DNA of 64,000 nucleotides from Minisyncoccota bacterium (lineage in GTDB: Bacteria; Patescibacteriota; Minisyncoccia; Phycocordibacterales; UBA5272). Location of the stretch: assembly GCA_018063165.1 (NCBI GenBank), contig JAGOQU010000001.1:35809-99808 (forward strand), written 5' to 3'. The position numbers and the translations under genes were made by a program. Positions 3,818 to 60,213 of the stretch are shown piece by piece (position 1 is the stretch's first letter; every line of letters begins with the position of its first letter). The notes beneath the pieces are model-generated. The model did not search any database. It saw nothing but the letters and a program-made list of their open reading frames with translations, and was not told where the DNA came from.

Positions 3818-4486
3818 ATGTCAATTACAATAGAAGCTCTTAAAAAAGCAGGTTTACAGTACGGATATTCTCGTACACGTCGTCACCCATCAGTAAAACC
3901 TTTTATCGAAGGTAATTATAATGGTGTTGATTTTATTAATCTTGCAACAACTAAGACACAATTAGAAGAAGCTGTTACTTTCCTAACAAGTATGCGTTCA
4001 GCAGGAAAGACAATACTTTTTGTTGGTGTAAAGCCAGAAATTCGCCAAATAGTAAAAGAAGTAGCTCTTTCTCTTAATGCTCCGTATATCGCTGAGCGTT
4101 TTATTGGTGGCACTCTTACCAATTTCCCACAAATCAAGAAACGTATAGAAAAGCTTCATGATCTTTTAAAGAAAAAAGAAACAGGCGAACTAGCTGTATA
4201 TACAAAAAAAGAACAACTTCTCATACAGCGCGATATAGATAGATTAGATAGAGATTTTGGTGGTGTATCATCACTTACCAACACTCCTTCTGCGATAGTT
4301 ATGATTGATTCACGTCATGAAGATATGTGTGTTAAAGAAGCTAAGCGTCTCCACATACCTGTAGTTGCACTTTGTAATACTGACTGTACACTAGAAGGTA
4401 TCGAGTACCCAATTGTTGGTAATGATGGTTCTGTTACCTCAGTACGTTTTGTGCTCGAAGCTATAAAAGCTGCTCTTCACGAGTAA
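3818..4486 (+). CDS. rpsB: 30S ribosomal protein S2
   Basis: Full-length similarity to bacterial S2 (GVDFINLATTK, ILFVGVKPE, NAPYIAERFIGGTLTNF, IPVVALCNTDC). Confidence 0.9.
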   Translation: MSITIEALKKAGLQYGYSRTRRHPSVKPFIEGNYNGVDFINLATTKTQLEEAVTFLTSMRSAGKTILFVGVKPEIRQIVKEVALSLNAPYIAERFIGGTLTNFPQIKKRIEKLHDLLKKKETGELAVYTKKEQLLIQRDIDRLDRDFGGVSSLTNTPSAIVMIDSRHEDMCVKEAKRLHIPVVALCNTDCTLEGIEYPIVGNDGSVTSVRFVLEAIKAALHE

Positions 4487-4576: not shown

Positions 4577-5050
4577 ATGGACACAATAAAAGAACTTCGT
4601 GAGGAAACTGGATTATCACTTTCTCAAATTAAAAAAGCATTAGATGAAGTAGGGGGAGATAAAGAGAAAGCAAGAGCTCTTCTTGCAGAATATTCTGCTA
4701 CTCAAGCAGAAAAGAAATCAGACCGAGAATTGGCAGCGGGTGTTATCTCTGCATACGTTCACTCAACTGGAACTATAGGTGTACTTCTAGAGCTTGGATG
4801 TGAGACAGACTTTGTTGCAAAGAATGAAGAGTTCGTTGCGTTGGCTCATGATATAGCTATGCATGTGTGTGCTATGGCACCAACATCAATTAATAATGAA
4901 GATGGTCTCGGTGAAGAAACAGCACTTATGAAGCAGTCGTTTATCAAAAATCCAGAACTTACTATTGAGCAAAAGATTCAGTCTGCTGTACAGAAGTTCG
5001 GTGAAAATACAAAAGTAATTCGTTTTTCTCGTTATAGTATTTCAGAATAA
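4577..5050 (+). CDS. tsf: elongation factor Ts, short 157-aa form
   Basis: N-terminal UBA-like EF-Ts motif (IKELREETGLSLSQIKKAL) and the core GVLLELGCETDFVAKNEEF. Conserved rpsB-tsf order. Confidence 0.85.
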   Translation: MDTIKELREETGLSLSQIKKALDEVGGDKEKARALLAEYSATQAEKKSDRELAAGVISAYVHSTGTIGVLLELGCETDFVAKNEEFVALAHDIAMHVCAMAPTSINNEDGLGEETALMKQSFIKNPELTIEQKIQSAVQKFGENTKVIRFSRYSISE

Positions 5051-16516: not shown

Positions 16517-16891
16517 ATGGAGAATAATAAACAAAATAAAATAGAAAGCATTAGTCAAGGTGAATTAGCAGATTTTATCGTTGTTTACGATAAGTGGAAA
16601 AATTATTCAAATGTTCTTAATGAAGCTGACCATGATCTTCCACCAGATATCCGTTTAGTTCGTGGTTCAAGTGACCCTCAGTATGTAGATGCAAATCGTC
16701 AGATTCTTCCTGCTGCTGCTGAGATTAATAAATTTATTTCCGAATTGGGTAAAGAAAGGCTCGTTGCCGCATTAAAAGGTGCTGGGCGTATGGATGCAGT
16801 AGATACAATTAATTTGTTTACTCAAACATTTGATGTCCAACCTAAAAAAGTAACAAGCAGATTTGAAAAGTTTAAAAAGCTTTTTGATTAA
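16517..16891 (+). CDS. hypothetical protein
   Basis: ORF with no recognised motifs. Confidence 0.35.
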   Translation: MENNKQNKIESISQGELADFIVVYDKWKNYSNVLNEADHDLPPDIRLVRGSSDPQYVDANRQILPAAAEINKFISELGKERLVAALKGAGRMDAVDTINLFTQTFDVQPKKVTSRFEKFKKLFD

Positions 16892-16983
16892 TTAAATTAA
16901 CTTATTTATAAAATATAGCCAAAAATCTCTTTTAAAATAAGGCTAAAAATGCCACTTTTCCACTTTCTTTTGCAACCTAAAAA

Positions 16984-16992
16984 TGCTATAAT
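16984..16992 (+). promoter_or_regulatory. extended -10 element (TGcTATAAT) upstream of gyrB
   Basis: TGCTATAAT about 35 nt upstream of the gyrB ATG in AT-rich intergenic DNA. Confidence 0.3.
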
Positions 16993-16996
16993 TTAG

Positions 16997-19129
<2,133 letters not shown>

Positions 19130-19189
19130 TCTGTTTTGTGATATAATAAAGTATAGATAACAGTAATTATTTTTTGTTAAAAGGAGTTA

Positions 19190-19471
19190 GTGATGGATGA
19201 TTCTTTACCTGTTTCTTCTAATAAAAGAGTTTTAATTTCTATTTCTGGAGATTTTGACGGAAGTGTTATAAGAGAGATCAAGGTTTTACGAAATGTTGGT
19301 TTATTAACAGGAAATATTTCTATTGTAAGTGTTGACAGTGTCATTCATTCACCGGAACAGACACAGAAATATTTTGATGGTTCTGATAAAGGTTATATTT
19401 CACCTGGAGAAAAAGTATTCATCGTTGATGATTTTCATGTTGTTACTTGTCCAGATCTTTCTTCTTATTAA
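19190..19471 (+). CDS. hypothetical small protein
   Basis: AAGGAG RBS upstream; no family recognised. Confidence 0.35.
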   Translation: MMDDSLPVSSNKRVLISISGDFDGSVIREIKVLRNVGLLTGNISIVSVDSVIHSPEQTQKYFDGSDKGYISPGEKVFIVDDFHVVTCPDLSSY

Positions 19472-19554
19472 ATAAAAATTATTATTTGTTTTTGATAATA
19501 CTACATCGTATCATTGTATGTAATACGATGTATATATTTATATAAGGAGTTTCT

Positions 19555-20064
19555 ATGGATTCTATTCTTGTTCCTTATGCATTTGTTTCAGGGGTTTATG
19601 AAGTTGACCGTCTCATGAAAATGTATATTAAGTATCTTTTTTCTACAAAAACAGAAAAAAATATTTTAATACAACAATATGATTCACATATTGTTGCTAG
19701 AGCGTTTGAAACTTTATTTAACGAAACTTTTTATTGTGTTTCTGGATACTATGTTTCTGCTAAAATGGAAGAAATAAGTTTTAACGATCTACATGAAAAA
19801 GATTTTTCACATAGATCTCAGGTACATTCATGGTTAGTGTTTAAAGGGAATCCACACTTTGTTGTAGATGTTATTCCTGTAGATGGTGTTTTTGGTTTAA
19901 CTCCAGTTATACCTTTTTTTCTGAATAATAATTCCTACGGATATATTTCTTCTGAAAGTAAAGATTTACCGCATTGGGATACACATCAAAAACAAAAAAT
20001 GGAAAAAGATGTAAAAGACTTTGTTAATATACTTAACAATCTAAGAACAGAAGCACTCTTTTAG
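19555..20064 (+). CDS. hypothetical protein, tandem paralog A
   Basis: AAGGAG RBS. Shares HxWL...VVDVIPVDGVFG block with the next gene. Confidence 0.45.
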   Translation: MDSILVPYAFVSGVYEVDRLMKMYIKYLFSTKTEKNILIQQYDSHIVARAFETLFNETFYCVSGYYVSAKMEEISFNDLHEKDFSHRSQVHSWLVFKGNPHFVVDVIPVDGVFGLTPVIPFFLNNNSYGYISSESKDLPHWDTHQKQKMEKDVKDFVNILNNLRTEALF

Positions 20065-20076
20065 GGTGCTTTTTTC
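20051..20076 (+). terminator. candidate hairpin plus T-tract overlapping the stop of paralog A
   Basis: AAGCACTC-TTTTA-GGGTGCTT followed by TTTTC. Confidence 0.3.
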
Positions 20077-20144
20077 ATGTCTTTTTATTTTGGTAAAAAA
20101 AGAGTAGTATAGAGTGAGTTCTTTCTGTTATTAAGGAGAATATA

Positions 20145-20639
20145 TTGGAAACAAATACACCTCTTAGGTTACTTGTTTTTTCTCAGAAAAGACTTGAAGT
20201 TTCTATGTTGTATGATTTATATTGCCAGTATATACGTTATAAAATAGCAATAGAAGAGACCTACGCTATTCCTGACAGCTTTTTACTTACAACAGCATTT
20301 TCTCTTGTTTTTCCAGAGTTAAAACTTAGTTCTGGATATGTATCATTTATTGTTGATATTAATTTTGAGAATAAGATAATTGCCTTAAAAAGATTGCCGC
20401 ATCATTGGTTAACATGGGAAGATGAAAATCATATTATTGATGTATTACCTGTTGATGGAATGTTTGGTGTAAGTGTACCTCAGGCTGTATTGCAAAATTA
20501 CGGTAATAAAAGATTTTTTCTTACAAAAAATTTATTTCCAAAAGAGTGGAGCGCTAAACAAAAAGTTGATTTTGAAAATAAAGCAGAAGAACTTTCTGTG
20601 ATTTTGCAAGATATTATGTCAAAATCTATGCAATACTAA
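20145..20639 (+). CDS. hypothetical protein, tandem paralog B (TTG start per ORF track)
   Basis: AAGGAGA RBS 6 nt upstream of TTG. Shares HHWL...IIDVLPVDGMFG block with paralog A. Confidence 0.45.
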   Translation: METNTPLRLLVFSQKRLEVSMLYDLYCQYIRYKIAIEETYAIPDSFLLTTAFSLVFPELKLSSGYVSFIVDINFENKIIALKRLPHHWLTWEDENHIIDVLPVDGMFGVSVPQAVLQNYGNKRFFLTKNLFPKEWSAKQKVDFENKAEELSVILQDIMSKSMQY

Positions 20640-20668
20640 AAAGCGCCTCGTTAGAGGCGCTTTTTTCT
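20639..20668. terminator. bidirectional intrinsic terminator between convergent genes
   Basis: A-run, GCGCCTC-GTTA-GAGGCGC, T-run. Flanked by convergent stop codons (20639 and 20671). Confidence 0.55.
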
Positions 20669-20670
20669 TT

Positions 20671-22434
20671 TTATTGTTTCTTTTTAATTTCAGAAGAAAG
20701 TTTTTCTGTAAGTTCATCTACAGACATCTCACCAATTTTACCAAGTGTTATGTGTTCTAGTGTTACAGTATTGTTTGTAACTTCAGCATCGCCAATAACT
20801 GCCCAATAGGGTGTTTTCATGTCTTTAGTATTACGAACTTTTTTGCCAAGTCCATCTTTACTATCATCCAGCTCACTTCGTACATTTAGAGATGTAAGTT
20901 TTTCGTGTACTATTTTTGCGTAATCGTTGTGGGATTCTCTGATAGGTATAACAGAAATTTGTACTGGCGAAAGCCAGAGAGGGAAGTTGCCAGCAACATG
21001 CTCTATAAGTGTAGACATAAAACGTTCAATTGAACCCATAATTGCACAATGTATCATAACGGGTTGTTCACGTTTACCTTCTTCATTTACAAATTCAAGT
21101 CCAAAATTTGTTGGTTGAACAAAATCTAATTGAACGGTTGCCACTTGCCATGTTCTTCCTATAGAATCTTTTGCCATAAAATCTACTTTTGGTCCATAAA
21201 AAGCAGCTTCACCAACACCATCTATCCAAGTGTCAGCACTCTTTTTTTCTAGAAGTGATTTGATTGCATTTTCTGCTTTATTCCAACCTTCTTCACTACC
21301 CATGTATTTTTCAGGGTTTTCTGGGTCACGTCTTGAAAATCGTGGTACGAGAGTAAAACCAAATGTACTATAGAAGTCCTCGATAATTTTCCAGACACTG
21401 GTAATTTCTTCTTCTAATTGTGATTCACGGCAAAATACATGAGCATCATCTTGTGTAATAGAAAGTACACGAGCAAGACCAGAAAGTTCACCTGATTGTT
21501 CATCTCTATACACCATAGTTGTCTCACAAAAACGAAGAGGTAATTCTCTATATGAACGAAGCTCACTCGCATAAATCTGAGCATGATGAGGACAGTTCAT
21601 AGGTTTCATACAAAATGTATGACCATCACGTGTATTGATTTTGAAAAGATCTTCAGCGTATTTTGCCCAATGCCCACTTTTTATATAGAGGTCATTTTTT
21701 GTTATATGTGGAATTGTTACTTTTTGATAACCTTGTTTTTTACGAAGTGACCACACAAAGTCATTCAATTCTTCTCTAATTATAGTACCTCTTGGTGTCC
21801 AAAGAGGAAGACCGGAACCAACAAGATCTGAAAAGGTGAATAGCTTTAGTTGTTTACCTAAAAGACGATGATCACGTTTTTTAGCTTCTTCTTGTTGCAG
21901 TATATAAGCGTCAAGTTCTTCTTTTGTGTTAAAAGCTAAACCATAAATACGTGTAAGCATAGGTTTTGTTTCGTCTCCTCTCCAGTATGCTCCTGCTAGG
22001 TGTGACAACATAAAAGAGTCAGTTGCTATATTGTTAGTATTATCAACATGAGGGCCTTCACATAGATCAAAAAAATCTTCACCTGTGTAATAGAGTGTAA
22101 CGTCTTCTCCTTTTTCTTTAATGCCAGATATTAGTTCGAGTTTGAAGGGGTTAACAGAAAAAAGTCCTTCAGCGATATCTGCTGTAATTGTTTCTTTTTT
22201 AAAAGCGAGATTACGTTTAAGTATCTCAACCATAGTTTTCTGTAGTTTTGGAAGATCTTCTGATGTTAGTTTAGTTCCGTCGACAAAATCTATATCATAA
22301 TAAAAACCTGTTTCTGTAACTGGGCCTATAGTAGGAAGTGCGTGAGGAAAATCATGTTTAATAGCCATTAATAAAATATGTGCCAAAGAATGTCTTTTAT
22401 TAAAAATAGGTGTTTGTGTACTGGTGTGTGACAT
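20671..22434 (-). CDS. thrS: threonine--tRNA ligase (lacks N-terminal TGS domain)
   Basis: tRNA_SAD (HSLAHIL) and class II core (HRLLGKQLKLFTF, LPLWTPRG, RDEQSGELSGLARV). Anticodon-binding domain present. Confidence 0.9.
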   Translation of the reverse strand: MSHTSTQTPIFNKRHSLAHILLMAIKHDFPHALPTIGPVTETGFYYDIDFVDGTKLTSEDLPKLQKTMVEILKRNLAFKKETITADIAEGLFSVNPFKLELISGIKEKGEDVTLYYTGEDFFDLCEGPHVDNTNNIATDSFMLSHLAGAYWRGDETKPMLTRIYGLAFNTKEELDAYILQQEEAKKRDHRLLGKQLKLFTFSDLVGSGLPLWTPRGTIIREELNDFVWSLRKKQGYQKVTIPHITKNDLYIKSGHWAKYAEDLFKINTRDGHTFCMKPMNCPHHAQIYASELRSYRELPLRFCETTMVYRDEQSGELSGLARVLSITQDDAHVFCRESQLEEEITSVWKIIEDFYSTFGFTLVPRFSRRDPENPEKYMGSEEGWNKAENAIKSLLEKKSADTWIDGVGEAAFYGPKVDFMAKDSIGRTWQVATVQLDFVQPTNFGLEFVNEEGKREQPVMIHCAIMGSIERFMSTLIEHVAGNFPLWLSPVQISVIPIRESHNDYAKIVHEKLTSLNVRSELDDSKDGLGKKVRNTKDMKTPYWAVIGDAEVTNNTVTLEHITLGKIGEMSVDELTEKLSSEIKKKQ

Positions 22435-22510
22435 ATATAAATATAGTATCAGAAAATACTCTTTTTGTGGAGTAATATAAAATTGTTATATTTTGGTGTT
22501 TGTTATTTGC

Positions 22511-22538
22511 TTGACATGTGCTACAGATTTTGTACTAT
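22511..22538 (+). promoter_or_regulatory. candidate sigma70 promoter for the LemA gene, in the divergent thrS/lemA intergenic region
   Basis: TTGACA, 16 nt, TACTAT (preceded by TG). Confidence 0.3.
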
Positions 22539-22614
22539 GGAATAACTGGCTAGATATTCCCGTATATACCATGAAATAAAAATCTAGCAAGTAATTTACT
22601 TTAACTTTTATCTT

Positions 22615-23172
22615 ATGATACCACTTTATATTTTTATTGGAATTATCGTTCTCGGTGTGATTCTTGTTGTTGGAATGTACAATGGACTTGTTACAGCTCG
22701 TATGCAAGTAAAAGAAGCATGGGCAGATATTGATGTGCAACTCAAACGTCGCTTTGATCTTATCCCTAATCTGATTAACACTATCAAAGGTGCAACTAAT
22801 TTTGAAAGTTCTACTCTTGAAAAAGTTATTGAAGCTCGTGCTAAAGCTATGCAAGCAGGTACTCCAAAAGAGCACGGTGAGGCAGAAAACGCCCTTTCAG
22901 GAACTCTTAAAAGTATTTTTGCACTTAGTGAGAGTTACCCAGATCTTAAATCAAATCAGAACTTTCTATCTCTTCAAAGTGAGCTTGCAGATACAGAAAA
23001 TAAAATACAAGCTTCTAGACGTTTCTACAATAGTAATGTTATGAACTACAATACAAAAATTCAGACAGTTCCTACAAATATTATTGCTAACATGTTTTCT
23101 TTTACTGAATCAGAATTTTTTGAACTCGCAGAAGGCGACTCTGCTAAGGAAGTTGTAGAAGTAAAATTCTAG
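22615..23172 (+). CDS. LemA family membrane protein
   Basis: N-terminal TM helix plus LemA core (LVTARMQVKEAWADIDVQLKRRFDLIPNLINTIKG). Confidence 0.8.
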   Translation: MIPLYIFIGIIVLGVILVVGMYNGLVTARMQVKEAWADIDVQLKRRFDLIPNLINTIKGATNFESSTLEKVIEARAKAMQAGTPKEHGEAENALSGTLKSIFALSESYPDLKSNQNFLSLQSELADTENKIQASRRFYNSNVMNYNTKIQTVPTNIIANMFSFTESEFFELAEGDSAKEVVEVKF

Positions 23173-23229
23173 TTTATTCTATTCTGAAGTAGAAATAAGT
23201 ATTTCTACTAGTATAGTATCTATTAAAAT

Positions 23230-24135
23230 ATGACAACTCTTTATACAAATCAGTCAACCAATGTAAAAAAAACATGGTTTCTTATGACTAGTTTTCTTGT
23301 TCTTATTATAGCAATCGGTTTCGGTCTTTCTTTTACGTATGGTAATCCATATTTTTTGTATATAGCTATTGGTATTAGTTTGATTACCAATATAGGTGCT
23401 TATTGGTTTTCTGATAAGCTTGTACTTCAAATGGCTGGTGCAAAAAAAATAGAATCAAAAGACGACTATCCTGAACTTTGGAATACCATGGAAAATCTTT
23501 GTATAACTGCAGGGCTTCCAATGCCAAAGTTGTATGTAATTGATGATCCTGCTCCAAACGCTTTTGCGACAGGTAGAGATAAAAATCATTCTGTGGTCGC
23601 TGTAACATCAGGTCTTTTACCTTTATTAACAAAATCAGAATTAGAAGGTGTGCTTGCACATGAGCTTTCTCATATTGGTAATAAAGACATGCTTATACAA
23701 ACGGTTGTTGTTGTGTTCGCAGGAATGATTTCTATTATTGCAAATATTGCACTACATATTTCTTCTGTGGGTGGTAATGAAAAAAAGAATCCTTTTCTTG
23801 TTATCCTTGGTTTTGTAGGAATCTTACTTGCTCCTATTGTTGCAACAATTATTAAACTTGCCATTTCGCGTGAGCGTGAATTTTTGGCTGACGCTACAGG
23901 CGCTCTTATTACTAGATATCCAGAAGGTCTTGCTTCAGCTCTTGAAAAGATTAGTAATTTTCATCAGCCTATGCGTATACAAAATAACACTATTGCGCAT
24001 TTGTTTATTTCTGATCCTACTGGAATTAATGATGAGACAGAAGTTAGAGAGCATGAAAAAGTTTCTTTTGTTCAAAAGTTATTCATGACACATCCTCCTG
24101 TAAAAGAGAGAGTTGCGCGATTACTGGTAAAATAG
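23230..24135 (+). CDS. htpX: zinc metalloprotease HtpX homolog (M48 family)
   Basis: Four TM segments. HELSH zinc-binding motif (LAHELSHIGNKD). C-terminal FMTHPPVKERV. Confidence 0.85.
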   Translation: MTTLYTNQSTNVKKTWFLMTSFLVLIIAIGFGLSFTYGNPYFLYIAIGISLITNIGAYWFSDKLVLQMAGAKKIESKDDYPELWNTMENLCITAGLPMPKLYVIDDPAPNAFATGRDKNHSVVAVTSGLLPLLTKSELEGVLAHELSHIGNKDMLIQTVVVVFAGMISIIANIALHISSVGGNEKKNPFLVILGFVGILLAPIVATIIKLAISREREFLADATGALITRYPEGLASALEKISNFHQPMRIQNNTIAHLFISDPTGINDETEVREHEKVSFVQKLFMTHPPVKERVARLLVK

Positions 24136-24184
24136 TTTTCTGTTTTGTAGAAGTAATACTATTTATTTGATATACTTTTTGTAT

Positions 24185-24748
24185 ATGAAAAAAATAATTA
24201 TCGGAGGAGTTATTGGTTTTGTTCTTATTATTGGTATGTGGCTCACTTCATCATATAACACCATGGTGAAGGCAAATCTCGCAGTTGATACACAGTGGGC
24301 TCAGGTAGAGACACAGTATCAGAGACGTTTTGACCTCATTCCTTCACTTGTTGGTGCGGTTAAAGGTATTATGAAGCAAGAGACAACTGTGTTTACGGCA
24401 ATTGCAGAAGCAAGACAGGGGTACGCTGGTGCAAGAACTGTTAATGAGAAAGCTGTTGCAGCAGGGCAGATGGAAAGTGCTCTTGCTAGACTTCTTGTGA
24501 TTACAGAAAATTACCCACAACTTAGATCTATAGAAGCAGTAACTAATCTACAGACGCAACTTGAAGGCACAGAGAATCGTGTTTCAGTGGAAAGAACTCG
24601 CTTTAATGATATTGTTGGTAGTTTTAATGTACAGGTAAGTACTTTTCCAGGTAATCTAATGGCAAAGATTTTTGGTTTTGAAAAACGACCTTTCTTTAAA
24701 TCTGCAGAATCTGCAGAAAAAGCTCCAGTAGTTGATTTAATTCAATAA
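24185..24748 (+). CDS. LemA family membrane protein, second copy
   Basis: Same architecture (QWAQVETQYQRRFDLIPSLVGAVKG). Start placed at MKKIIIGG. Confidence 0.8.
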   Translation: MKKIIIGGVIGFVLIIGMWLTSSYNTMVKANLAVDTQWAQVETQYQRRFDLIPSLVGAVKGIMKQETTVFTAIAEARQGYAGARTVNEKAVAAGQMESALARLLVITENYPQLRSIEAVTNLQTQLEGTENRVSVERTRFNDIVGSFNVQVSTFPGNLMAKIFGFEKRPFFKSAESAEKAPVVDLIQ

Positions 24749-24754
24749 TTATTT

Positions 24755-25645
24755 ATGAAAAAAAGAGCATTAATCAGTGCTCTCTTTTTTGTTATTCCTT
24801 TTCTTGTATATGCTTTTGATATACCTACTAGTCCAGTGGGGTATGTGAATGATTATGCACATGTTTTACAAGAAGATGTTAAACAAAAATTAGAACAAGA
24901 TTTAAGTAATTTTACCGCAAGTACAAGTAATGAAATAGCTGTAGTTATTATTCCTGAGCTTGGTTCAGATACAATAGAACATTATGCTAATACATTATTT
25001 AGCACTTGGAAAATTGGAAATGAAAAAAACGATAATGGTGTTCTTCTCCTTATTTCTATTAATGATAGAAAAGTAAGAATAGAAGTTGGTTATGGGTTAG
25101 AGGGTGCTATACCAGATATTCTTGCGAAGAATATTATAACTACAAAAATAACACCATCGTTTAAACAGGGGGATTATGCTACTGGTGTAACTCTTGCTGT
25201 TGAGGCAATAAAAGAAGCAAGTAGAGGTGAGTATACTCACATAGAAAAAAAGCCAAACTTCTTTTCTTCTGTATCTGGAAATACCATTGAAATACTTTTA
25301 GTTTTTTTATTTTTTGCTCTTCAATATTTATCATCTATTTTAGCAAGAAGTAAATCTTGGTGGGCTGGTGGTATAGTAGGGGGTGTGTTAGGCGGTGTTA
25401 TTACGTTTTTTAATATTTTTGGCACGACTTTAGCGATCAGTGGTGTTATTACAGGAATTCTTGTTATTCTCGGTCTTCTTTTTGATTATGTTGTTTCAAA
25501 CACGTATCAAAATAGAATACAAAGTGGAGGAAGTAGTTTGCCGTGGTGGATAGGTGGAGGAAATGGTTCGTCAGGTGGCAGTGATTCATTTGGAGGTTTT
25601 GGTGGAGGTGATTCAGGTGGTGGTGGTGCGAGTGGTGATTGGTAA
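24755..25645 (+). CDS. TPM domain (YgcG/MOLO-1-like) membrane protein with a Gly-rich C-terminus
   Basis: Signal peptide. TPM core (YVNDYAHVLQ...EIAVVIIPELGSDTIEHYANTLFSTWKIGNEKNDNGVLLLISINDRKVRIEVGYGLEG). TM helices, then GGG repeats. Confidence 0.75.
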   Translation: MKKRALISALFFVIPFLVYAFDIPTSPVGYVNDYAHVLQEDVKQKLEQDLSNFTASTSNEIAVVIIPELGSDTIEHYANTLFSTWKIGNEKNDNGVLLLISINDRKVRIEVGYGLEGAIPDILAKNIITTKITPSFKQGDYATGVTLAVEAIKEASRGEYTHIEKKPNFFSSVSGNTIEILLVFLFFALQYLSSILARSKSWWAGGIVGGVLGGVITFFNIFGTTLAISGVITGILVILGLLFDYVVSNTYQNRIQSGGSSLPWWIGGGNGSSGGSDSFGGFGGGDSGGGGASGDW

Positions 25646-25686
25646 TCAACATACAAAATATAGATAGTCGTTGTATACTTAATTAT

Positions 25687-26043
25687 ATGATAGTATTTGA
25701 TATTATTCTTAGTGCTTTTATTATGTGTGTTGTTGTTTTTTGTTATATAGTTACTATTTCTTTTGTGGTATGGATGATAGTAGATTCTGCAAAACAAGAT
25801 AGATTTTGGTGGCTTGTTGGTATTATAGGTGTACCAATAATAGGTGCCACAATATATTATCTTACAGAAAAGAAACATCAATATAGACAGATTGAGCCAC
25901 ATCATATTCACGAAAGTGAAACTGAACAACAGCATGAAAACGCTCCGAAGAAAAAGAGAGCAAAGAAGGTAAAAGAAAATGTAACTGTTCCAAGTGTTAC
26001 AAGTATTGAAAGTCTTGAAGTGATAAAAGAAGAAGTTAAATAA
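25687..26043 (+). CDS. PLDc_N (phospholipase-D-like N-terminal) domain small membrane protein
   Basis: WMIVDSAKQDRFWWLVGIIGVPIIGATIYYL, typical of the PLD nuclease N-terminal domain family. Start chosen downstream of the TPM stop. Confidence 0.5.
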   Translation: MIVFDIILSAFIMCVVVFCYIVTISFVVWMIVDSAKQDRFWWLVGIIGVPIIGATIYYLTEKKHQYRQIEPHHIHESETEQQHENAPKKKRAKKVKENVTVPSVTSIESLEVIKEEVK

Positions 26044-26049
26044 AATATA

Positions 26050-26077
26050 AAAATCACCCGATGTGGGTGATTTTTAT
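26050..26077. terminator. bidirectional intrinsic terminator
   Basis: ATCACCC-GATGT-GGGTGAT followed by TTTTT. Lies between convergent genes. Confidence 0.5.
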
Positions 26078-26079
26078 TT

Positions 26080-26388
26080 CTAATGTAATACTCTTTCAGT
26101 TTCTTCTATTTTTTCTTTTATTGCGTGTAATATTTCTAATTTATGTTCTTTTGTTGTGCTTTTTGCATATTTTTCAATGAATTCAGAATCTGCAATTATT
26201 TCTCTGAATGTTTTTGAGTGATTGCTTGTAGCATAAAGATACATGGCTTCTTCTCTGGCTTCATCTGTATCTTCAGGTTGGTAAAAAATCTTGGAAAGTT
26301 CAATTTGCATTTCTGTTTCAGTATCCATTTTTTCTTGATTAGACATTGCCTTTTCATTTGACGGTTGCACCATTTCTAAATTTGACAT
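26080..26388 (-). CDS. hypothetical small acidic protein
   Basis: ORF only. Confidence 0.35.
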   Translation of the reverse strand: MSNLEMVQPSNEKAMSNQEKMDTETEMQIELSKIFYQPEDTDEAREEAMYLYATSNHSKTFREIIADSEFIEKYAKSTTKEHKLEILHAIKEKIEETERVLH

Positions 26389-26478
26389 ATATATTTAATT
26401 TATATATAAAAGTATCTCACATTTAAGATTTCCTGTCATGTGTTATAATTGTATTTGTTTTATAAAAGTATATTTATT

Positions 26479-26565
26479 GGAGGCGTCGCATAGCGGTCTA
26501 GTGCACTACCTTGGAAAGGTAGCGACGGGGTAACTTGTCCGAGAGTTCGAATCTCTCCGCCTCCG
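26479..26565 (+). tRNA. tRNA-Ser (anticodon GGA) with long variable arm
   Basis: Acceptor GGAGGCG/CGCCTCC. Anticodon stem CTACC/GGTAG with loop TTGGAAA. Long extra arm. T-arm GAGAG-TTCGAAT-CTCTC. Discriminator G. Confidence 0.85.
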
Positions 26566-26572
26566 CTAGACA

Positions 26573-26665
26573 ATGAAATCGATGGGGAATAAAAATCCGA
26601 CACTGAAAACCTTGAAAAAAGTAGTAAAAGTTCTTGGTGTTAGCATTGATACTTTAATAACTTGA
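26573..26665 (+). pseudogene. 5'-truncated remnant of an XRE-family helix-turn-helix regulator gene (C-terminal 30 codons only)
   Basis: Translation MKSMGNKNPTLKTLKKVVKVLGVSIDTLIT matches the conserved C-terminal half of Cro/C1-type HTH domains (G.RNPSLETLLKIAKALGVSLDEL). It begins 8 nt after the tRNA-Ser 3' end. Confidence 0.5.
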
Positions 26666-26734
26666 ATGTTGTTAAAAGTGTCGATGGTAAAATAATAAGT
26701 AAGGTTATAAATAATAATTAACTAATTAAAAAAT

Positions 26735-27517
26735 ATGAATCAAGAAAATGTTAACAAATTAGTGGATTGGATAAAAGTTAACCAAAATTATTCTACGGAA
26801 CAAGTAAAGCAGTTAGCTTTACAAGGTGGATCAAGTGAAGAAGATTTTAATTCCGCTATGAGTATTGTATCGGCAAATACTATGTCTATCAATAGCCAAC
26901 CTCAAAGAAATTTATTTAGCGACCCATCATTATGGTTATTGCTGTTTTCTAACCTTGTAACTATTTTTTTTGCGACGAAAGAAGGTTGGAATTTATCAAC
27001 AATAATGTGGATTTATTGGTTTCAAAGTATCATAATTGGACTTTTTAATTTTATTAGAATACTTCAGTTAAGAGAGTTTTCTACCGAAGGACTTAAGATA
27101 AATGATCAACCTGCACAACCAACACAAAGCACAAAAAAGTACATTGCTTTTTTCTTCTTATTTCACTACAGTTTTTTTCACTTTGGTTATTCTATATTTC
27201 TTTTAATTGGTTTTTTTAACAAATCTCATGGACAAAGTTTAAGTTCCATAGATTTTAAATTCATCTTTATAGCTACTTTAATCTTTTTTATCAACCATCT
27301 TTTTTCTTATTTTTATAATAGACCGAGAGATACCAAAAAACAGAATATTGGATCATTAATGTTTTATCCTTACGCAAGAATAATTCCAATGCACCTCACT
27401 ATAATTTTTGGTTCATATTTCGTTAGTGCCTTGCCATTTTTTCTTGTACTTAAAACTTTTTCAGATGCTGTGATGCATATTGTTGTGCACAAAGTTTTAA
27501 GAAAAGGTGAGGAGTAA
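26735..27517 (+). CDS. hypothetical polytopic membrane protein
   Basis: Multiple TM helices; no family recognised. Confidence 0.45.
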   Translation: MNQENVNKLVDWIKVNQNYSTEQVKQLALQGGSSEEDFNSAMSIVSANTMSINSQPQRNLFSDPSLWLLLFSNLVTIFFATKEGWNLSTIMWIYWFQSIIIGLFNFIRILQLREFSTEGLKINDQPAQPTQSTKKYIAFFFLFHYSFFHFGYSIFLLIGFFNKSHGQSLSSIDFKFIFIATLIFFINHLFSYFYNRPRDTKKQNIGSLMFYPYARIIPMHLTIIFGSYFVSALPFFLVLKTFSDAVMHIVVHKVLRKGEE

Positions 27518-27557
27518 AGAGGAAGGCGGCAAATTTTCCGAAAAAGCGAATTCAGAA

Positions 27558-27598
27558 TCCCGCCCGCATTCCTCCCCAGACCCCTCCTGCGGGCGGGA
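27558..27598. repeat. GC-rich perfect 11-bp-stem hairpin inside a locally GC-rich, apparently non-coding segment (27520-27650)
   Basis: TCCCGCCCGCA-19 nt loop-TGCGGGCGGGA. No T-tract. Composition contrasts sharply with the AT-rich surroundings. Confidence 0.4.
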
Positions 27599-27777
27599 AA
27601 TCAGCCGAGTCCGTTTTAATCATTTGGATTTTGCTTGAAATAGTTTCGAACTTTGTCCAACAAACACCGCTATAGAAAAAGTAACATGTAGATATATTAT
27701 GATGTGAAAATATCTAAAATAAGAACAGGTATTTGTGGTGGTATTAAAAGTATGTATACGTTATACTAGTAATTAAA

Positions 27778-28410
27778 ATGATTACACTATTTCCTTTTGG
27801 AGAAAAACATAAAGATTATTCAGTTCGTGTTTTGAATGAAAGAGAGGTAAGGTCTTCGGCTGGGGTTTTGTTTGTTCTTGCTTTTATCAGTTTCATGTAC
27901 GCTTTTCTTATTGGAGATTTCTTTCTTACTAAGATTTTTGTTACTTTTTTCTTATTAGATTTTACAATTCGTCTCTTTATTAATTATAGATTTTCTCCTT
28001 CTATAGTAATAGGTAGATTTATTGTACAAAATCAAACTCCAGAATATGTTGGTGCACCACAAAAAAGATTTGCTTGGTTAATTGGATTTTTTTTGAGTTT
28101 CATTATGTTTTTTTTGCTAGTTGTTTTAAATATTATCGGTCCAATTAATGCTTTAATTTGTTTTATTTGTTTACCTTTTTTGTTATTTGAATCAGCTTTT
28201 GGTATATGTATAGGTTGTGTCGTATACAAAAAAATATATAAAAACAATACAATAGAATTATGTGCTGGTAACGTATGTGTTACAAAAGAAAAAGAAGATA
28301 TACAAAAAATAAATAGACTTCAGATTATCCCGGTAATACTAATTCCTTTAAGTATTTTTATACTTATGCATTTTAATATAATAAAAAAAAGAAATAGTTA
28401 CGAGTCATAG
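27778..28410 (+). CDS. hypothetical polytopic membrane protein
   Basis: Four or five hydrophobic helices; no family recognised. Confidence 0.45.
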   Translation: MITLFPFGEKHKDYSVRVLNEREVRSSAGVLFVLAFISFMYAFLIGDFFLTKIFVTFFLLDFTIRLFINYRFSPSIVIGRFIVQNQTPEYVGAPQKRFAWLIGFFLSFIMFFLLVVLNIIGPINALICFICLPFLLFESAFGICIGCVVYKKIYKNNTIELCAGNVCVTKEKEDIQKINRLQIIPVILIPLSIFILMHFNIIKKRNSYES

Positions 28411-28533
28411 TAAAGAAGGGTGTATGGTTCCGTCTTGGGTAGAAACTTCTTGGCATATTGAAATGTGGAAAAAACACCATTGTAAGTAGGTGTTTTGTTT
28501 GTTTTAGTATTCTGCTGGTTATAAATAGGTGTA

Positions 28534-33380: not shown

Positions 33381-33938
33381 GTGATTATATGCTTTTCTTA
33401 TATACTTATCATTATCATGGAGCCAGAAAAAATAAGCACGTCAACAAGTGAAATAAATAAGCCTATTCAAGAAACCGAACCTGTATATCACACAATTTCT
33501 GGCGGAACAGAAACGTTAGCAGAAAAACAGCGCAGCAAGAGTATTGTTACCAGTGAACAGTTACATGTTCCTGTTGCAGTTACTGATACTGTTTTAGATA
33601 AGGAGGTTGTTACTGTAAATACTAACTTGAGATCGGAAAATATAATTATCAGATACGTATATGCAATTTTTGTTTCTTTTATTTTATTTTTTATTTTGTT
33701 AAGTTTTTTAAAAAATAATACTTATTTAAATCAAAATTTTTTTACATATATTCTCTGGTTATACTACTCACTTGCGTTTTTTCTGTTTGTTTTTTCTGTA
33801 AAATCTATTTTACAGAAAAAAAGTTATTACATGCTCGGTCAGTTTTTTTTATTTCTTATTTCACCAGTTCTTATTGGTTTTGGTTTGTGTATGACTTTTA
33901 TGTATGGAATTTCAATTTTTTCTGCATTTAAGAATTAA
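33381..33938 (+). CDS. hypothetical membrane protein
   Basis: C-terminal half contains three TM helices. Confidence 0.4.
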   Translation: MIICFSYILIIIMEPEKISTSTSEINKPIQETEPVYHTISGGTETLAEKQRSKSIVTSEQLHVPVAVTDTVLDKEVVTVNTNLRSENIIIRYVYAIFVSFILFFILLSFLKNNTYLNQNFFTYILWLYYSLAFFLFVFSVKSILQKKSYYMLGQFFLFLISPVLIGFGLCMTFMYGISIFSAFKN

Positions 33939-33946
33939 GTTATCGT

Positions 33947-34654
33947 ATGTATATTCATCTAGTAACTGATTATCTGTCCATTTTTATCGGGATGCAGTTT
34001 TATTTTTTATTGAATAAAAAATCAGGCATTAATCCTGAAAAAAAGATTTGGTATATAGTAGGTGCATTACTTGGAGCACTTATTGGTTCGAGATTGCTTG
34101 CTGCACTTGAAGATCCATATATGTTTTTGCATGCAGATACCTGGCTTTATTATTATGTTAATAAAACAATTATAGGTGGCATAGCTGGTGGTATTCTTGG
34201 TATAGAAATTGCAAAGAAGTTTCTTGGAATAAAAAGTAATACAGGAGATCAGGTAGTTATACCTCTTATGGTTGCAATTATTATTGGTCGTATCGGATGT
34301 CAGCTTACAGGAGTGTCAGATGGTACTATAGGTGTTGTTTGTGATTATCTATGGTGTTTTAAGCAAGGTGACGAATTTAATAGGCATCCAATACCATTAT
34401 ATGAAATAATTGAAATTTTGATACTTTTACCTATATTTTATAGATGGATACAGCAAAAGAAATTTCAAGAAGGTTTTGTTTTTAGACTTTTTATTATTAT
34501 ATATTTTGGTATGCGTTTTTTGTTTGAATATATAAAAGATACGAATTCAATTTTTGTATCATTTTCTGCAATTCAAATAGTTTGTCTTTTATTTGTGTTT
34601 TATTATATCTTTGATAGTATTAAACACGGATTGTACAAAACGAATATATCTTGA
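33947..34654 (+). CDS. lgt: prolipoprotein diacylglyceryl transferase
   Basis: Block-wise match to Lgt: GALLGALIGSRL; GGIAGGILG; DQVVIPLMVAIIIGRIGCQLTG (Lgt signature region G-R-x-G-x-F-x-N-G); HPIPLYEIIE (HP..LYE); FRLFIIIYFGMRFLFEYIKD. Confidence 0.7.
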   Translation: MYIHLVTDYLSIFIGMQFYFLLNKKSGINPEKKIWYIVGALLGALIGSRLLAALEDPYMFLHADTWLYYYVNKTIIGGIAGGILGIEIAKKFLGIKSNTGDQVVIPLMVAIIIGRIGCQLTGVSDGTIGVVCDYLWCFKQGDEFNRHPIPLYEIIEILILLPIFYRWIQQKKFQEGFVFRLFIIIYFGMRFLFEYIKDTNSIFVSFSAIQIVCLLFVFYYIFDSIKHGLYKTNIS

Positions 34655-34665
34655 AAGGGTATACT

Positions 34666-36042
34666 ATGAAATCAAATTATGAAAAAGAAGTTGTTATAAG
34701 CACAGATTCTTGTTGTGATAATTCGTATACACTTGATCATTTTTGCGGTAACGGAAAAAGGTTGAGCGATACAAAATCTCGTTGTAATGTGTGTGGTGTT
34801 GAATGTCGTGCTGAAATATTTCGTTCTAACGATACTCCTCCACGTATATATATGGTAAAACATTGCGCGGAGCATGGTAGAACTAGTTCTCGTATATCAA
34901 GTGATGCACAGTTTTATTATTCAATGAAAGATGGAGAGGTGTGTGCTTGTGGTACTCAAGGGTGCTCTCCTGTCTTGCTTGGTGATAATGCAAAAACTGC
35001 TTCACAATTGCATACATGTACTCTTGTTGTGGAAATTGTATATGATTGTAATCTTTCATGTCCAACATGTTATGCTAATAGTCCAAAAATGTATAATGCA
35101 AAATCATTATCTTTTTTAAGTTTTGAAGATTTTAAAAAATCAATTCTTGATTTGTATGCAAAACAGGGACGCTTAGATATTATCCAGCTTTCAGGTGGAG
35201 AGCCGACACTTCACCCTCAATTATTTGAAATGATAGAATGGTTATCTAAACAGGAATGGATTGCAGATATATTACTTAATACTAATGGTATCAAGCTTGC
35301 TGATCAACTGTTTATGCATAAAATATTAGAAGTTGTACCTCTTGGTCGTTTCGGAGTATATTTACAATTCGATGGTAATACTCCTTTTGGTCAGGTTACA
35401 CTTCGTGGCAATGATATGAGGTCAGTGCGTGAACGTGCAATAAAAAATTGTTCATCATACAATATTCCTGTATCACTTGTGATGACTGTAACGCATGATA
35501 ATAAATTTGATTGTAGTACTGCTATTACAAAAGCACTTTCTGATGATTATATACGTTGGATAGTTTTTCAACCAGAATTTATTTCTGGCAGGAATGGTAA
35601 AGATAAAATTTTTGAAACACCCATAAATGTTGCAGACGTTATTCATAGTGTTGCCACTGGTAGTATTATGGATATTCATTCTTGGATGCCATTACCTTGT
35701 AGTGATCCTAATTGTGGTACCGTAGGTTTTCTTGTAAGGAAAGATGGTGTATGGATACCAGTTTCAAAATTTGTAGATATGAATCAATTTTCTCCATTTA
35801 TTTTAAATAGAATGAATTTTGATATTGATGATTCTCTTGCGTCATGTGGTTGTGATAATGTAAGTCTTGAAGAAGAACTTGCAAGATATAACATTGAAAA
35901 AAAAGATATAAAAATGGTTTTCATTAAACCTTTTATGGATATAAGGACATGGGACACAAAACGTATCGAGTCGTGCTGTACGCATGTACTGACACCAGAA
36001 GGTAAACTTGATAGTTTTTGTAGGTATTATGGAACAAGGTAA
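34666..36042 (+). CDS. radical SAM enzyme with a Cys-rich N-terminal zinc-ribbon-like region and a C-terminal Cys cluster
   Basis: CNLSCPTCY (CxxxCxxC), IIQLSGGEPTLHP, LLNTNG. N-terminus CCDNS...CGNG...CNVCGVEC...C..HG. C-terminus CSDPNC...SCGC...SCCTH...SFC. Start at ATG 34666; the track start is a TTG overlapping the lgt stop. Confidence 0.75.
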   Translation: MKSNYEKEVVISTDSCCDNSYTLDHFCGNGKRLSDTKSRCNVCGVECRAEIFRSNDTPPRIYMVKHCAEHGRTSSRISSDAQFYYSMKDGEVCACGTQGCSPVLLGDNAKTASQLHTCTLVVEIVYDCNLSCPTCYANSPKMYNAKSLSFLSFEDFKKSILDLYAKQGRLDIIQLSGGEPTLHPQLFEMIEWLSKQEWIADILLNTNGIKLADQLFMHKILEVVPLGRFGVYLQFDGNTPFGQVTLRGNDMRSVRERAIKNCSSYNIPVSLVMTVTHDNKFDCSTAITKALSDDYIRWIVFQPEFISGRNGKDKIFETPINVADVIHSVATGSIMDIHSWMPLPCSDPNCGTVGFLVRKDGVWIPVSKFVDMNQFSPFILNRMNFDIDDSLASCGCDNVSLEEELARYNIEKKDIKMVFIKPFMDIRTWDTKRIESCCTHVLTPEGKLDSFCRYYGTR

Positions 36043-36059
36043 TCTTTTTTTAATTACTA

Positions 36060-36088
36060 AAAACCCGCGACTATGTCGCGGGTTTTAT
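36060..36088. terminator. bidirectional intrinsic terminator
   Basis: ACCCGCGAC-TAT-GTCGCGGGT flanked by A/T runs. Lies between convergent genes. Confidence 0.5.
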
Positions 36089-36101
36089 AAATATATTAAA
36101 A

Positions 36102-36410
36102 TTAATTTATTATAAATAAGGTTAATAATAGTCCTGTTAAGAAAATAGATAGTATTAACAAAAAAAATCCAATGATAACGGTAAAAATTTTTACACGTAA
36201 AGGGTAAAAATCTTCTAATTCTGGTTTTTTTCTGAATACTGCAATCATACTGCTTAAGGAATATAAAGCAGACACTAAAAATGTTGCTATCGGTATAATC
36301 ATTAATGGTTTTGCTAATCCCATAAACATACAACTTCCAAAACCAACAAGTTGTAATATGATAGCGCGGATAATGTGTTCTTGTTTCATTTTAGTAAAAA
36401 TATTTTGCAT
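36102..36410 (-). CDS. hypothetical small membrane protein (three TM helices)
   Basis: Hydrophobicity pattern only. Confidence 0.4.
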   Translation of the reverse strand: MQNIFTKMKQEHIIRAIILQLVGFGSCMFMGLAKPLMIIPIATFLVSALYSLSSMIAVFRKKPELEDFYPLRVKIFTVIIGFFLLILSIFLTGLLLTLFIIN

Positions 36411-36550
36411 ATAGTAAAGTATATCAAAAATATATTTTTTGTGTTTATGATAACGACATAAAATAAATAGTTTGTAATTTTATTTTTTTTAATAACGCTT
36501 TCTTATTGATTAAAATTTTTTTCTGTGATAGTTTTATACATGGACTCTAG

Positions 36551-43912: not shown

Positions 43913-43970
43913 AAAGATAGCAAGAGTCATTTATATTGCTAACTTAGATCTAACACAGTATTATATAGAT

Positions 43971-44345
43971 ATGAAAAAGATAATGATTATTGAAGATGAT
44001 AAAGAGCTCCAGGAGATGTACAAGATTAATTTTGAATTAGCTGGATATAAAGTATTTCAAGAGATGGATGGTCTTGAAGGAATATCTACAATAGTAGACA
44101 AAAAACCAGATGTTATTCTTCTTGATATTAACATGCCAAATATGGATGGATTTGAATTTTTAAAAGTAATGAAAAATAATACAAGTATTAATATACCTGT
44201 TATTGTTTGTTCAGATATGTCTGATAAAAAAACATATGATAAATCAATAGAAGCAGGAGCTATTAGTTTTTTGTTGAAAGTAGATTATTCTGGTAAAGAA
44301 CTTGTTGAAAAAGTAGACCGTATTATTAAAGGTATCGATTTATAA
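43971..44345 (+). CDS. single-domain (receiver-only) response regulator, copy 1
   Basis: CheY-like REC (MKKIMIIEDDKELQ, phospho-acceptor D in ILLDINMPNMDG). No output domain. Start at the internal ATG of the track ORF. Confidence 0.8.
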   Translation: MKKIMIIEDDKELQEMYKINFELAGYKVFQEMDGLEGISTIVDKKPDVILLDINMPNMDGFEFLKVMKNNTSINIPVIVCSDMSDKKTYDKSIEAGAISFLLKVDYSGKELVEKVDRIIKGIDL

Positions 44346-44365
44346 AAAAGTTTATCTTTATTGAT

Positions 44366-44740
44366 ATGAAAAAAATAATGATTATCGAAGACGATAAAGA
44401 TCTTCAAGAAATATATAAAATTAATTTTGAGATGGTTGGGTATGAAGTAATGCAAGAATTTGATGGTTTAGATGGTATAGCAAGTGTAGTAGACAAAAAA
44501 CCAGATGCAATTCTGCTTGATATTAACATGCCAAATATGGATGGTTTTGCTTTCTTAAATGCTATAAATGATAATACAAGTATTAATATTCCAGTAATTG
44601 TATGTTCTAATCTCTCTGACCAAGAAACACAAAATAAAGCATTATCCTCAGGTGCTGCAGGTGTTTTGGTTAAAGTTGATTATTCCGGCAAGCAATTAGT
44701 TGAGAAAGTTGGTCATATTTTAAATGGTATTGCTGTATAA
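44366..44740 (+). CDS. single-domain (receiver-only) response regulator, copy 2
   Basis: About two-thirds identical to copy 1 over 124 aa. Confidence 0.8.
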   Translation: MKKIMIIEDDKDLQEIYKINFEMVGYEVMQEFDGLDGIASVVDKKPDAILLDINMPNMDGFAFLNAINDNTSINIPVIVCSNLSDQETQNKALSSGAAGVLVKVDYSGKQLVEKVGHILNGIAV

Positions 44741-46419: not shown

Positions 46420-46437
46420 TTATTTTTATTTGTCTGT

Positions 46438-46815
46438 ATGAAAAAAATAATGATTATAGAAGATAATAAAGATATACAAAATATATATAAACATAGTTTT
46501 GAAAAAGCTGGGTATGAAGTTATTATTGAAGATAATGGATTAGAAGGGATCAATAATGTTGTTCAAAAAATGCCAGATGTTATTTTGCTTGACCTTATGA
46601 TGCCTAAAATGGATGGATTTGAATTTTTAAAATTAATGAAGCAAAATTCTACACTGAATATTCCTGTTATCGTGTGTTCAAACATATCTGATAACGAAAT
46701 ATATGCAAAAGTTATGGATTTTGGCGCTGCTGCTATAATTTTAAAAGTAGACTATTCTGGAAAACAACTTGTTGAAAAGGTTGAATATATTATGAAAGAT
46801 TTACATAAAATCTAG
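46438..46815 (+). CDS. single-domain (receiver-only) response regulator, copy 3
   Basis: Paralog of copies 1 and 2 (MKKIMIIEDNKDIQ, LLDLMMPKMDG). Confidence 0.8.
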   Translation: MKKIMIIEDNKDIQNIYKHSFEKAGYEVIIEDNGLEGINNVVQKMPDVILLDLMMPKMDGFEFLKLMKQNSTLNIPVIVCSNISDNEIYAKVMDFGAAAIILKVDYSGKQLVEKVEYIMKDLHKI

Positions 46816-50069: not shown

Positions 50070-50142
50070 GCCAGAGTAGCTCAGTTGGTAGAGCATCTCA
50101 CTCGTAACGAGAAGGTCGTGAGTTCGATCCTCGCCTCTGGCT
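50070..50142 (+). tRNA. tRNA-Thr (anticodon CGT)
   Basis: Acceptor GCCAGAG/CTCTGGC. D-arm GCTC/GAGC. Anticodon loop CTCGTAA. T-arm GTGAG-TTCGATC-CTCGC. Discriminator T. Confidence 0.8.
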
Positions 50143-60093: not shown

Positions 60094-60142
60094 AATACTA
60101 ATAAGTATACATGAAAATGCACTCTATTTCTTTATTGTGTTG

Positions 60143-60213
60143 CTGGGGTACAAGGGCTCGAACCTCGATTAACAGTTCCAGAAACTGCTGTCCTACCATT
60201 AGACGATACCCCA
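60143..60213 (-). tRNA. tRNA-Gln (anticodon CTG)
   Basis: Reverse complement TGGGGTATCGTCTAATGGTAGGACAGCAGTTTCTGGAACTGTTAATCGAGGTTCGAGCCCTTGTACCCCAG. U1-A72 as in bacterial tRNA-Gln. Anticodon loop TTCTGGA. Confidence 0.8.

Follow-up and report, generated by a model that had tools for sequence, protein, structure and literature searches.

The 30-codon open reading frame (ORF) directly behind tRNA-Ser(GGA) in the 64,000-nucleotide stretch of DNA analyzed here (hereafter the window) is probably, at roughly 80%, the non-functional 3′ remnant (residues 36–65) of a gene for a 65-amino-acid stand-alone XRE repressor, left by deletion decay of a cassette bounded by inverted repeats that stood behind the tRNA gene. 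The case is built on directly observed features: the remnant is homologous to intact XRE genes, both deletion junctions were located, relatives carry the intact cassette, and neither an integrase nor att repeats were found. All positions are those of the window, and the features of the locus are listed below.

26479–26566, + strand: tRNA-Ser(GGA), assigned by ARAGORN; acceptor stem intact, encoded CCA and the AGTTTTA trailer of relatives absent
26567–26572, + strand: deletion junction TAGACA; homology to intact XRE genes from 26572
26573–26665, + strand: XRE remnant, codons 36–65 and stop of a 65-aa Cro/C1 HTH gene, assigned by HTH_3 and homology; without a Shine-Dalgarno sequence
26666–26734, + strand: conserved XRE-RDD intergenic region, alignable to L014, L017 and L009
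26735–26865, + strand: RDD-family gene, first ~44 codons; 83% amino acid identity to residues 1–47 of the L014 RDD protein
26866–26872, + strand: junction of an internal deletion of ~1.3 kb, located by DNA alignment; microhomology GCAA(A/G)T
26873–27517, + strand: DUF6498 membrane-protein gene with its own ATG at 26882, in frame with the RDD start; 151 bits
27520–27609, + strand: right-hand GC-rich inverted-repeat unit, including the hairpin at 27558–27598; 91–93% identical to the left (inverted) and right copies of L100
27610–27668, + strand: conserved 3′ flank of the cassette (..GTCCAACAAACACCGC), common to L013 and L104

Identity of the 30-codon ORF

The product of the ORF at 26573–26665 is MKSMGNKNPTLKTLKKVVKVLGVSIDTLIT. 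Residues 5–28 of this peptide were aligned by Pfam HTH_3 to profile positions 32–55 of 55 (E=2e-4, 21.8 bits), a score that lies just under the curated cut-off of 23 bits and is borderline taken alone. Full-length relatives match the whole domain, from position 1 to 55, at 66 bits. The profile search proposed in the initial annotation therefore gave a match to the expected family, although at a score below the cut-off. Using tblastn, 26573–26656 was aligned to residues 36–63 of the cassette XRE protein at 68% amino acid identity. At the DNA level, blastn aligned window positions 26572–26865 to the intact locus L100 with 77.6% identity over 295 nt (E=1e-60), and this homology extends from the stub across the intergenic region into the first part of the gene that follows. 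On homology, descent of the stub from a bona fide XRE (Cro/C1) family member can be considered settled, and the initial assignment of the ORF to the C-terminal half of a Cro/C1-type HTH domain is borne out. A chance ORF is ruled out by DNA homology reaching beyond the ORF. No further XRE-family copy was found in the 64-kb window by tblastn with the cassette XRE protein.

Helix 2-turn-helix 3 is absent from the stub: the region corresponding to residues 1–35 is gone, and the tRNA gene is in its place. Because helices 1–3 are missing, the stub is predicted to be unable to bind DNA as an XRE protein, and it would also go untranslated. No Shine-Dalgarno sequence precedes its ATG, the 12 nt upstream consisting of tRNA acceptor sequence and TAGACA, and an in-frame TAG (26567–26569) is located upstream of the ORF. 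Identity to 20 full-length family members is 47–63%, while those members are mostly 80–94% identical to their consensus, and near-invariant family positions are replaced in the stub (E to K, G to M, D to K). The stub is almost certainly a non-functional pseudogene remnant, probably transcribed solely as a trailer of the tRNA, and should be flagged as a pseudogene in annotation pipelines. Like the ordinary remnants produced by deletion bias in small genomes, it is 5′-truncated, under relaxed constraint and joined through microhomology; the neighbouring in-frame fusion from a second deletion (see below) also fits. We found no material difference from such remnants, and the stub belongs to this category.

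It is highly improbable that the ORF encodes a functional micro-protein, for example a dimerization-helix peptide that titrates full-length XRE paralogues. The frame is open from an ATG with no internal stop and is kept in sister strains at 99% DNA identity, but this strain-level conservation is not above that of the flanking DNA. The lack of a Shine-Dalgarno sequence, the substituted near-invariant residues, and the occurrence of remnants of arbitrary length and of frameshifted copies in other genomes all count against such a function.

Junction with the tRNA gene

The Rfam tRNA model matches 26479–26565 with 54 bits, and the end of the tRNA gene and the junction read ..CCGC|TAGACA. The tRNA-Ser(GGA) genes of the relatives L011, L022 and L034 all end in ..CCGCCAAGTTTTA, whereas the corresponding window sequence is ..CCGCTAGACA / ..CCGCTAGACAATG; the breakpoint therefore lies inside the last bases of the tRNA gene. 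Lost at the junction were the encoded CCA, the trailer and everything up to XRE codon ~36. Since homology to intact XRE genes begins at 26572, the earlier observation that helices 1–3 are missing and that the truncation is flush against the tRNA 3′ end holds, with the spacer between tRNA and ORF corrected from 8 nt to an actual gap of 6–7 nt.

An identical tRNA/stub junction is found in three independent assemblies (L001, L003, L005) and therefore is not an assembly chimera. Both this junction and the RDD′-DUF6498 fusion described below recur in independent assemblies. Where a full-length XRE gene follows a tRNA gene (L094, L104, L115), the spacer is 225–350 nt, so that a deletion of about 330–460 nt suffices to produce the junction. 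When JGI metagenomes were scanned for exact matches to a 42-nt tRNA-Ser pattern, in order to find closer relatives of the junction, there were 0 hits. None of the relatives recovered has a fully intact cassette behind tRNA-Ser(GGA), and L011, L022 and L034 show other decay states; the ancestral arrangement given below is therefore reconstructed rather than observed.

The intact cassette and its remains in the window

In intact relatives, the genes are ordered XRE, RDD-family membrane protein, a 218-aa protein with a PLDc_N tail, and DUF6498, giving a cassette of 2.3 kb that consists of the XRE gene and three membrane-protein genes. All four genes are intact in L014, L017, L100–L102, L109, L112 and L113. 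In L014 and L017 the XRE protein is 65 aa long (MSNITKNLRKLREAKGLSQEKLARLAD..NQNPTLDTLKKIAKVLEVSIDELTK) and the RDD-family membrane protein is 208 aa long, starting MNQENVNKLVDWIKANRNY...SSEEDFNAAMSI. The tail of the 218-aa protein is a C-terminal membrane segment of the PLDc_N type (Pfam). An XRE-like ORF upstream of a DUF6498 homologue was first seen in L009. Relatives with an intact version of the locus, to which the initial annotation had looked for an intact element, thus do exist (L014, L017, L100 and others), but what is intact in them is the 2.3-kb cassette and not a prophage. Synteny around DUF6498 is mostly not conserved, and neither an empty site nor a target duplication was found for the whole cassette.

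A literature search on DUF6498 and the cassette returned nothing relevant and, as far as the literature searched shows, there is no earlier description of the cassette, of its association with tRNA genes or of its GC-rich palindromes. The comparison defines it as a conserved membrane cassette of four genes, the first of which encodes a 65-aa XRE regulator that is extremely uniform and very common in Patescibacteria. A reading of the cassette as a defence system was rejected: PADLOC gave only generic HTH matches, and none to the membrane proteins.

Downstream of the stub, the intergenic region of the window retains a promoter-like sequence, TTGTTA-16-AATAAT (26669–26696). The ORF that follows (26735–27517) encodes 260 aa. 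Residues 1–47 of the RDD protein were matched by tblastn at 26735–26875 (83%) and residues 5–210 of DUF6498 at 26897–27514 (86%). Given these matches and the microhomology at the junction, the 260-aa protein is therefore an in-frame fusion created by a deletion of ~1.3 kb, which took the rest of the RDD gene and the entire gene for the 218-aa protein. Homology between window and L100 by blastn falls into two blocks, 26572–26865 and 26880–27609. DUF6498 homologues are ~213 aa long, and a 49-residue N-terminal extension is unique to the window protein. The fused protein is encoded by six contigs from different samples. The fusion gene is probably still expressed from the retained internal promoter-like sequence, now without a repressor encoded in cis, and annotation of the 260-aa “DUF6498” protein should recognize that it was generated by deletion.

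We propose the following course of events. The ancestor would have had tRNA-Ser(GGA), a short trailer and then the complete cassette: GC-rich inverted repeat, promoter, XRE, promoter, RDD, the 218-aa PLDc_N-tail gene, DUF6498 and a second GC-rich inverted repeat. The cassette may originally have reached the tRNA flank by horizontal transfer. One microhomology-type deletion of ~330–460 nt would have begun in the last bases of the tRNA gene and ended at XRE codon ~36, so that XRE lost its promoter, its start codon and helices 1–3, including the recognition helix, along with the left repeat of the cassette. Another deletion of this type, of ~1.3 kb, would have fused the first ~44 RDD codons in frame to DUF6498. 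The former presumably stops exactly at the tRNA because a longer deletion would destroy an essential gene. Note that a site-specific event acting at the tRNA, instead of a random deletion bounded by selection, could equally have left a flush junction.

GC-rich inverted repeats

The hairpin at 27558–27598 has an 11-bp G+C stem and a 19-nt loop. The unit that contains it directly follows the DUF6498 stop codon in L013, L014 and L100 (91–96% identity). L100 has two copies of it that are inverted relative to each other, one ~120 nt before the XRE start and the other just after DUF6498, and window positions 27525–27596 match both copies. The long inverted repeats of L100 have arms at 1200–1483 and 3837–4109 that are 88–92% complementary. 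Cassettes are flanked by further inverted repeats in L017 (30 nt at 97%), L009 (53 nt) and L102 (94 nt); repeats that are 100% identical at contig ends are possibly inflated by assembly collapse. Passenger genes are bracketed by terminal inverted repeats in L100, L017, L009 and L102, and the window keeps the right one only. By this comparison the hairpin is the surviving right-hand repeat, the left one having been lost with the 5′ half of XRE. The suggestion that the hairpin is part of the same decayed unit as the stub thus stands, given its 91–93% identity to the L100 copies.

Smaller palindromic units vary in their presence. A 57-nt sub-unit, flanked by CCGAG, is present in L100 (3923–3979), L013 and L014 and is missing at position 27609/27610 of the window. 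A 68-nt unit flanked by GGAA direct repeats is present in L105 (3062–3130) and not in the near-identical L104. This pattern suggests that the 68-nt and 57-nt units are MITE-like mobile palindromes in A+T-rich genomes. No Rfam family was found for the GC-rich hairpin and elements, sub-threshold chance matches being all that was returned. Two other interpretations were tried and rejected. A structured RNA is argued against by a fold z-score of only −1.3 for the whole hairpin region and by the absence, by eye, of compensatory changes among four homologues of the window-type hairpin. For the palindromes as integron attC sites, the R″/R′ core motifs are absent, again by eye.

Association with tRNA genes and repeated loss of the regulator

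In related loci the cassette or DUF6498 lies 3′ of same-strand genes for Ser-GGA, Ser-TGA, Arg-TCT, Ala-GGC, Ala-CGC, Val-CAC, Pro-GGG, Leu-TAA, Leu-TAG, Gly-CCC and Tyr-GTA. A same-strand tRNA gene was present within 600 nt at 9 of 15 informative cassette loci, compared with 2–3% expected from tRNA density (P about 1e-10 to 1e-11). The conserved leader begins 55–120 nt after the different tRNAs, with no fixed junction. Cassette proteins are 80–95% identical behind at least 8 tRNA species. The Ser-TGA, Ser-GGA and Leu-TAG contexts are common to diverged genomes, so that part of the pattern reflects vertical inheritance with differential decay. For loci L007–L120, class II tRNAs (Ser, Leu, Tyr) are over-represented just upstream of the cassette or of DUF6498, making up 7 of 13 identities.

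The XRE gene has decayed independently in other genomes and is found in several states. It is intact in L017, L100–L102, L109, L112, L113 and L115–L117, frameshifted in L104/L105, degenerate in L106, L114 and L118, and absent from L103, L110, L111 and L120. Truncations at the 5′ end leave the gene from codon ~7 in L009, from codon 36 in the window and from codon ~41 in L108, where ~25 codons are joined to an arm of the GC-rich repeat through AAAAA microhomology; L107 keeps the last ~13 codons. The window stub is one instance of this repeated loss of the regulator.

Rearrangements next to tRNA-Arg(TCT) were observed in L009 at 4410–4472, 4615–4687 and 4707–4740. The 5′ half of the tRNA gene is duplicated together with upstream DNA (89% identity), and a separate tRNA 3′ fragment, with CCA at its end, would form a better pairing with the 5′ acceptor strand than the 3′ end now in place. 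Both features are signs of repeated rearrangement at tRNA-Arg(TCT).

Prophage, integrative element or mobile cassette

The initial annotation took the stub for a relic of a prophage or integrative element that had been inserted by an integrase into the tRNA-Ser 3′ end, with XRE as its repressor and the rest deleted. Several observations are in keeping with this: the stub is flush with the tRNA 3′ end, which has lost its encoded CCA; the same cassette stands behind many different tRNAs, at the significance given above; tRNA fragments are duplicated at L009; a fragmented serine recombinase lies upstream of a family XRE gene in L093; and a variable gene slot is located just downstream in sister strains. 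However, no integrase or recombinase was found within ~10 kb of the stub (Pfam, genes from 16.7 to 38 kb and extra ORFs). A second copy of the 22-nt tRNA-Ser 3′ end, allowing up to 3 mismatches, is absent from the 64 kb, as is any att-like tRNA 3′ repeat downstream of the tRNAs at 20 related loci, so that the displaced tRNA-Ser 3′ fragment (attR) expected from the initial annotation was not found in either place. A DUF6498 profile search of IMG/VR viral contigs gave no confirmed relative. In addition, intact versions are a 2.3-kb membrane-protein operon without phage or ICE genes, headed by the XRE gene, which speaks against XRE as the repressor of an element at an att site, and the leader starts at varying distances from different tRNAs rather than at a fixed junction.

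For recombinases at related loci, Pfam was run on 132 neighbouring ORFs. Phage_integrase is not among the 25 of 152 families listed, although a single match could be hidden among the others, and this absence also weighs against integrase-mediated insertion; Resolvase appears twice among the same 25. The recombinases seen at these loci were limited to fragmentary ones of the serine type, in L093 and L013. The L013 ORF at 790–1269 (− strand) is a C-terminal fragment resembling a large serine recombinase, its translation being judged by eye. It lies upstream of a region of ~4 kb, DUF6498 included, that is bracketed by a repeated G+C-rich segment of ~90 nt (~884–1000 and ~4895–4990), which was noticed from duplicated ORF translations.

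On balance, a prophage or ICE origin of the stub is unlikely. The weaker form of the earlier claim, that foreign DNA settled beside a tRNA gene and subsequently decayed, is supported by the occurrence of the cassette behind many tRNAs, and a small cassette lodged at tRNA flanks is possible. The locus resembles tRNA-associated islands and prophage remnants in its position immediately 3′ of a tRNA gene, its patchy distribution, its placement at different tRNAs in different genomes and the strain-variable slot adjoining it. It differs from them in lacking an integrase, a direct repeat of the tRNA end, a compositional shift (no anomaly was detected at the locus in a window of ~32% G+C) and phage or conjugation genes, and in that its junction is a deletion scar.

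An alternative that we regard as possible, though well short of probable, is a mobile insertion cassette without its own transposase, which has long GC-rich inverted repeats at its ends and reaches tRNA 3′ flanks by mobilization in trans; the window would then hold a one-ended, immobilized copy that had lost its left end and the 5′ half of XRE. This would account for the inverted repeats around the cassette in L100, L017, L009 and L102, for the similarity of the window hairpin to both L100 copies, and for the small palindromic sub-units with GGAA or CCGAG direct repeats that come and go between near-identical sequences. The similarity of the proteins behind at least 8 different tRNA species also fits, as does the shortness of most family contigs, which is expected for shared or repeated DNA. 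On the other hand, neither a transposase partner nor a clear target-site duplication was found, the identical contig-end repeats may represent assembly collapse, the Ser-TGA, Ser-GGA and Leu-TAG contexts in diverged genomes fit vertical inheritance with decay, and the GC-rich palindromes could be mere terminators duplicated on both sides. In comparison with mobile insertion cassettes and MITE-like or REP/BIME-type elements, the cassette is alike in having inverted repeats that bracket passenger genes, and its G+C-rich sub-units are alike in their presence/absence polymorphism and direct repeats of 4–5 nt. Its repeats differ in being long (150–285 nt) and composite, with no cognate IS, transposase or clear target duplication found, and its mobility is deduced from comparison only.

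A broader and somewhat more doubtful proposal is that XRE/RDD/PLDc_N-tail/DUF6498 constitutes an undescribed, integrase-less cassette of Patescibacteria with long composite GC-rich inverted repeats, which has been delivered repeatedly to tRNA 3′ flanks in the same orientation as the tRNA and has then repeatedly lost its repressor, the window copy being immobilized and derepressed. Should a targeting mechanism underlie the tRNA association, this would point to a route of gene movement in small genomes that operates here with no integrase nearby. Deletion decay of a cassette behind tRNA-Ser, by whichever route it arrived, is our preferred reading of the stub.

The parent XRE family

A search with the 65-aa parent XRE protein (word-limited) retrieved 1953 proteins at E≤1e-5, which form a large and uniform Patescibacteria family. 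Solved stand-alone repressors were matched at E values from 1e-5 to 4e-4, namely CylR2 (PDB 1UTX), the SinR N-domain (1B0N), C.AhdI (1Y7Y) and the ICEBs1 ImmR-like Xre protein (7T8I). With stand-alone Cro/C1 repressors of ~65 aa the parent shares its size, its single domain and its place at the head of an operon, and it is presumed to be a repressor. Unlike these, the window copy consists of the last two helices (profile positions 32–55) without the recognition helix and, judged from its sequence, cannot be a working Cro/C1 member. The parent family differs from the solved repressors in being unusually uniform, most members being 80–94% identical to the consensus query across Patescibacteria.

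The operons headed by the parent XRE gene vary by genome, with RDD/DUF6498 genes here and PsbP-like, Trypsin_2-like or YdjM-like genes elsewhere, which fits a local repressor of operons for membrane or secreted proteins. Because the recognition helix is nearly invariant across the family, redundancy among paralogues is plausible, and paralogous copies elsewhere in the genome may allow the loss of one to be tolerated. In L094/L095 (4049–6198), a family XRE gene at the head of a PsbP-like operon occupies the place downstream of a 16S rRNA gene where the 23S gene would normally follow; tRNA-Ile(GAT) and then a GC-rich palindrome separate it from the 16S gene.

Variation around the locus and other repeats in the window

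A 15-kb contig of GCA_017992935.1 is 100% identical to window 16735–28024. L002 and L003 are 95–99% identical to the window on both sides of the locus and share the stub and the fusion at 99%. In both L002 (1053–2121) and L003, an A+T-rich form of the repeat and an unrelated gene encoding 222 aa take the place of window 27545–28518, which comprises the GC-rich repeat and a DUF4395 gene (27778–28410). This replacement points to the cassette flank as a site of gene turnover within the species.

Farther downstream, a 3.1-kb segment (33402–36505) is absent from the sister-strain contig L002. It contains a 185-aa ORF, an Lgt-like gene, a gene for a radical-SAM/zinc-ribbon protein and a 102-aa ORF, and no mobile-element genes were seen in it. 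A perfect 36-nt direct repeat occurs at 50126–50161 and 50283–50318, the copies being 121 nt apart with relatively G+C-rich DNA between them. The first copy includes the 3′ end of tRNA-Thr(CGT) (50070–50143), which has no encoded CCA, and the pair looks like an attL/attR-type scar of integration at this tRNA gene. A 300-nt repeat is present in three copies of 70–78% identity (43964–44263, 44359–44658 and 46431–46730). Finally, a 144-nt tandem pair at 60197–60340 and 60348–60491 (92% identity) starts inside tRNA-Gln(CTG), which is encoded on the minus strand at 60142–60213.
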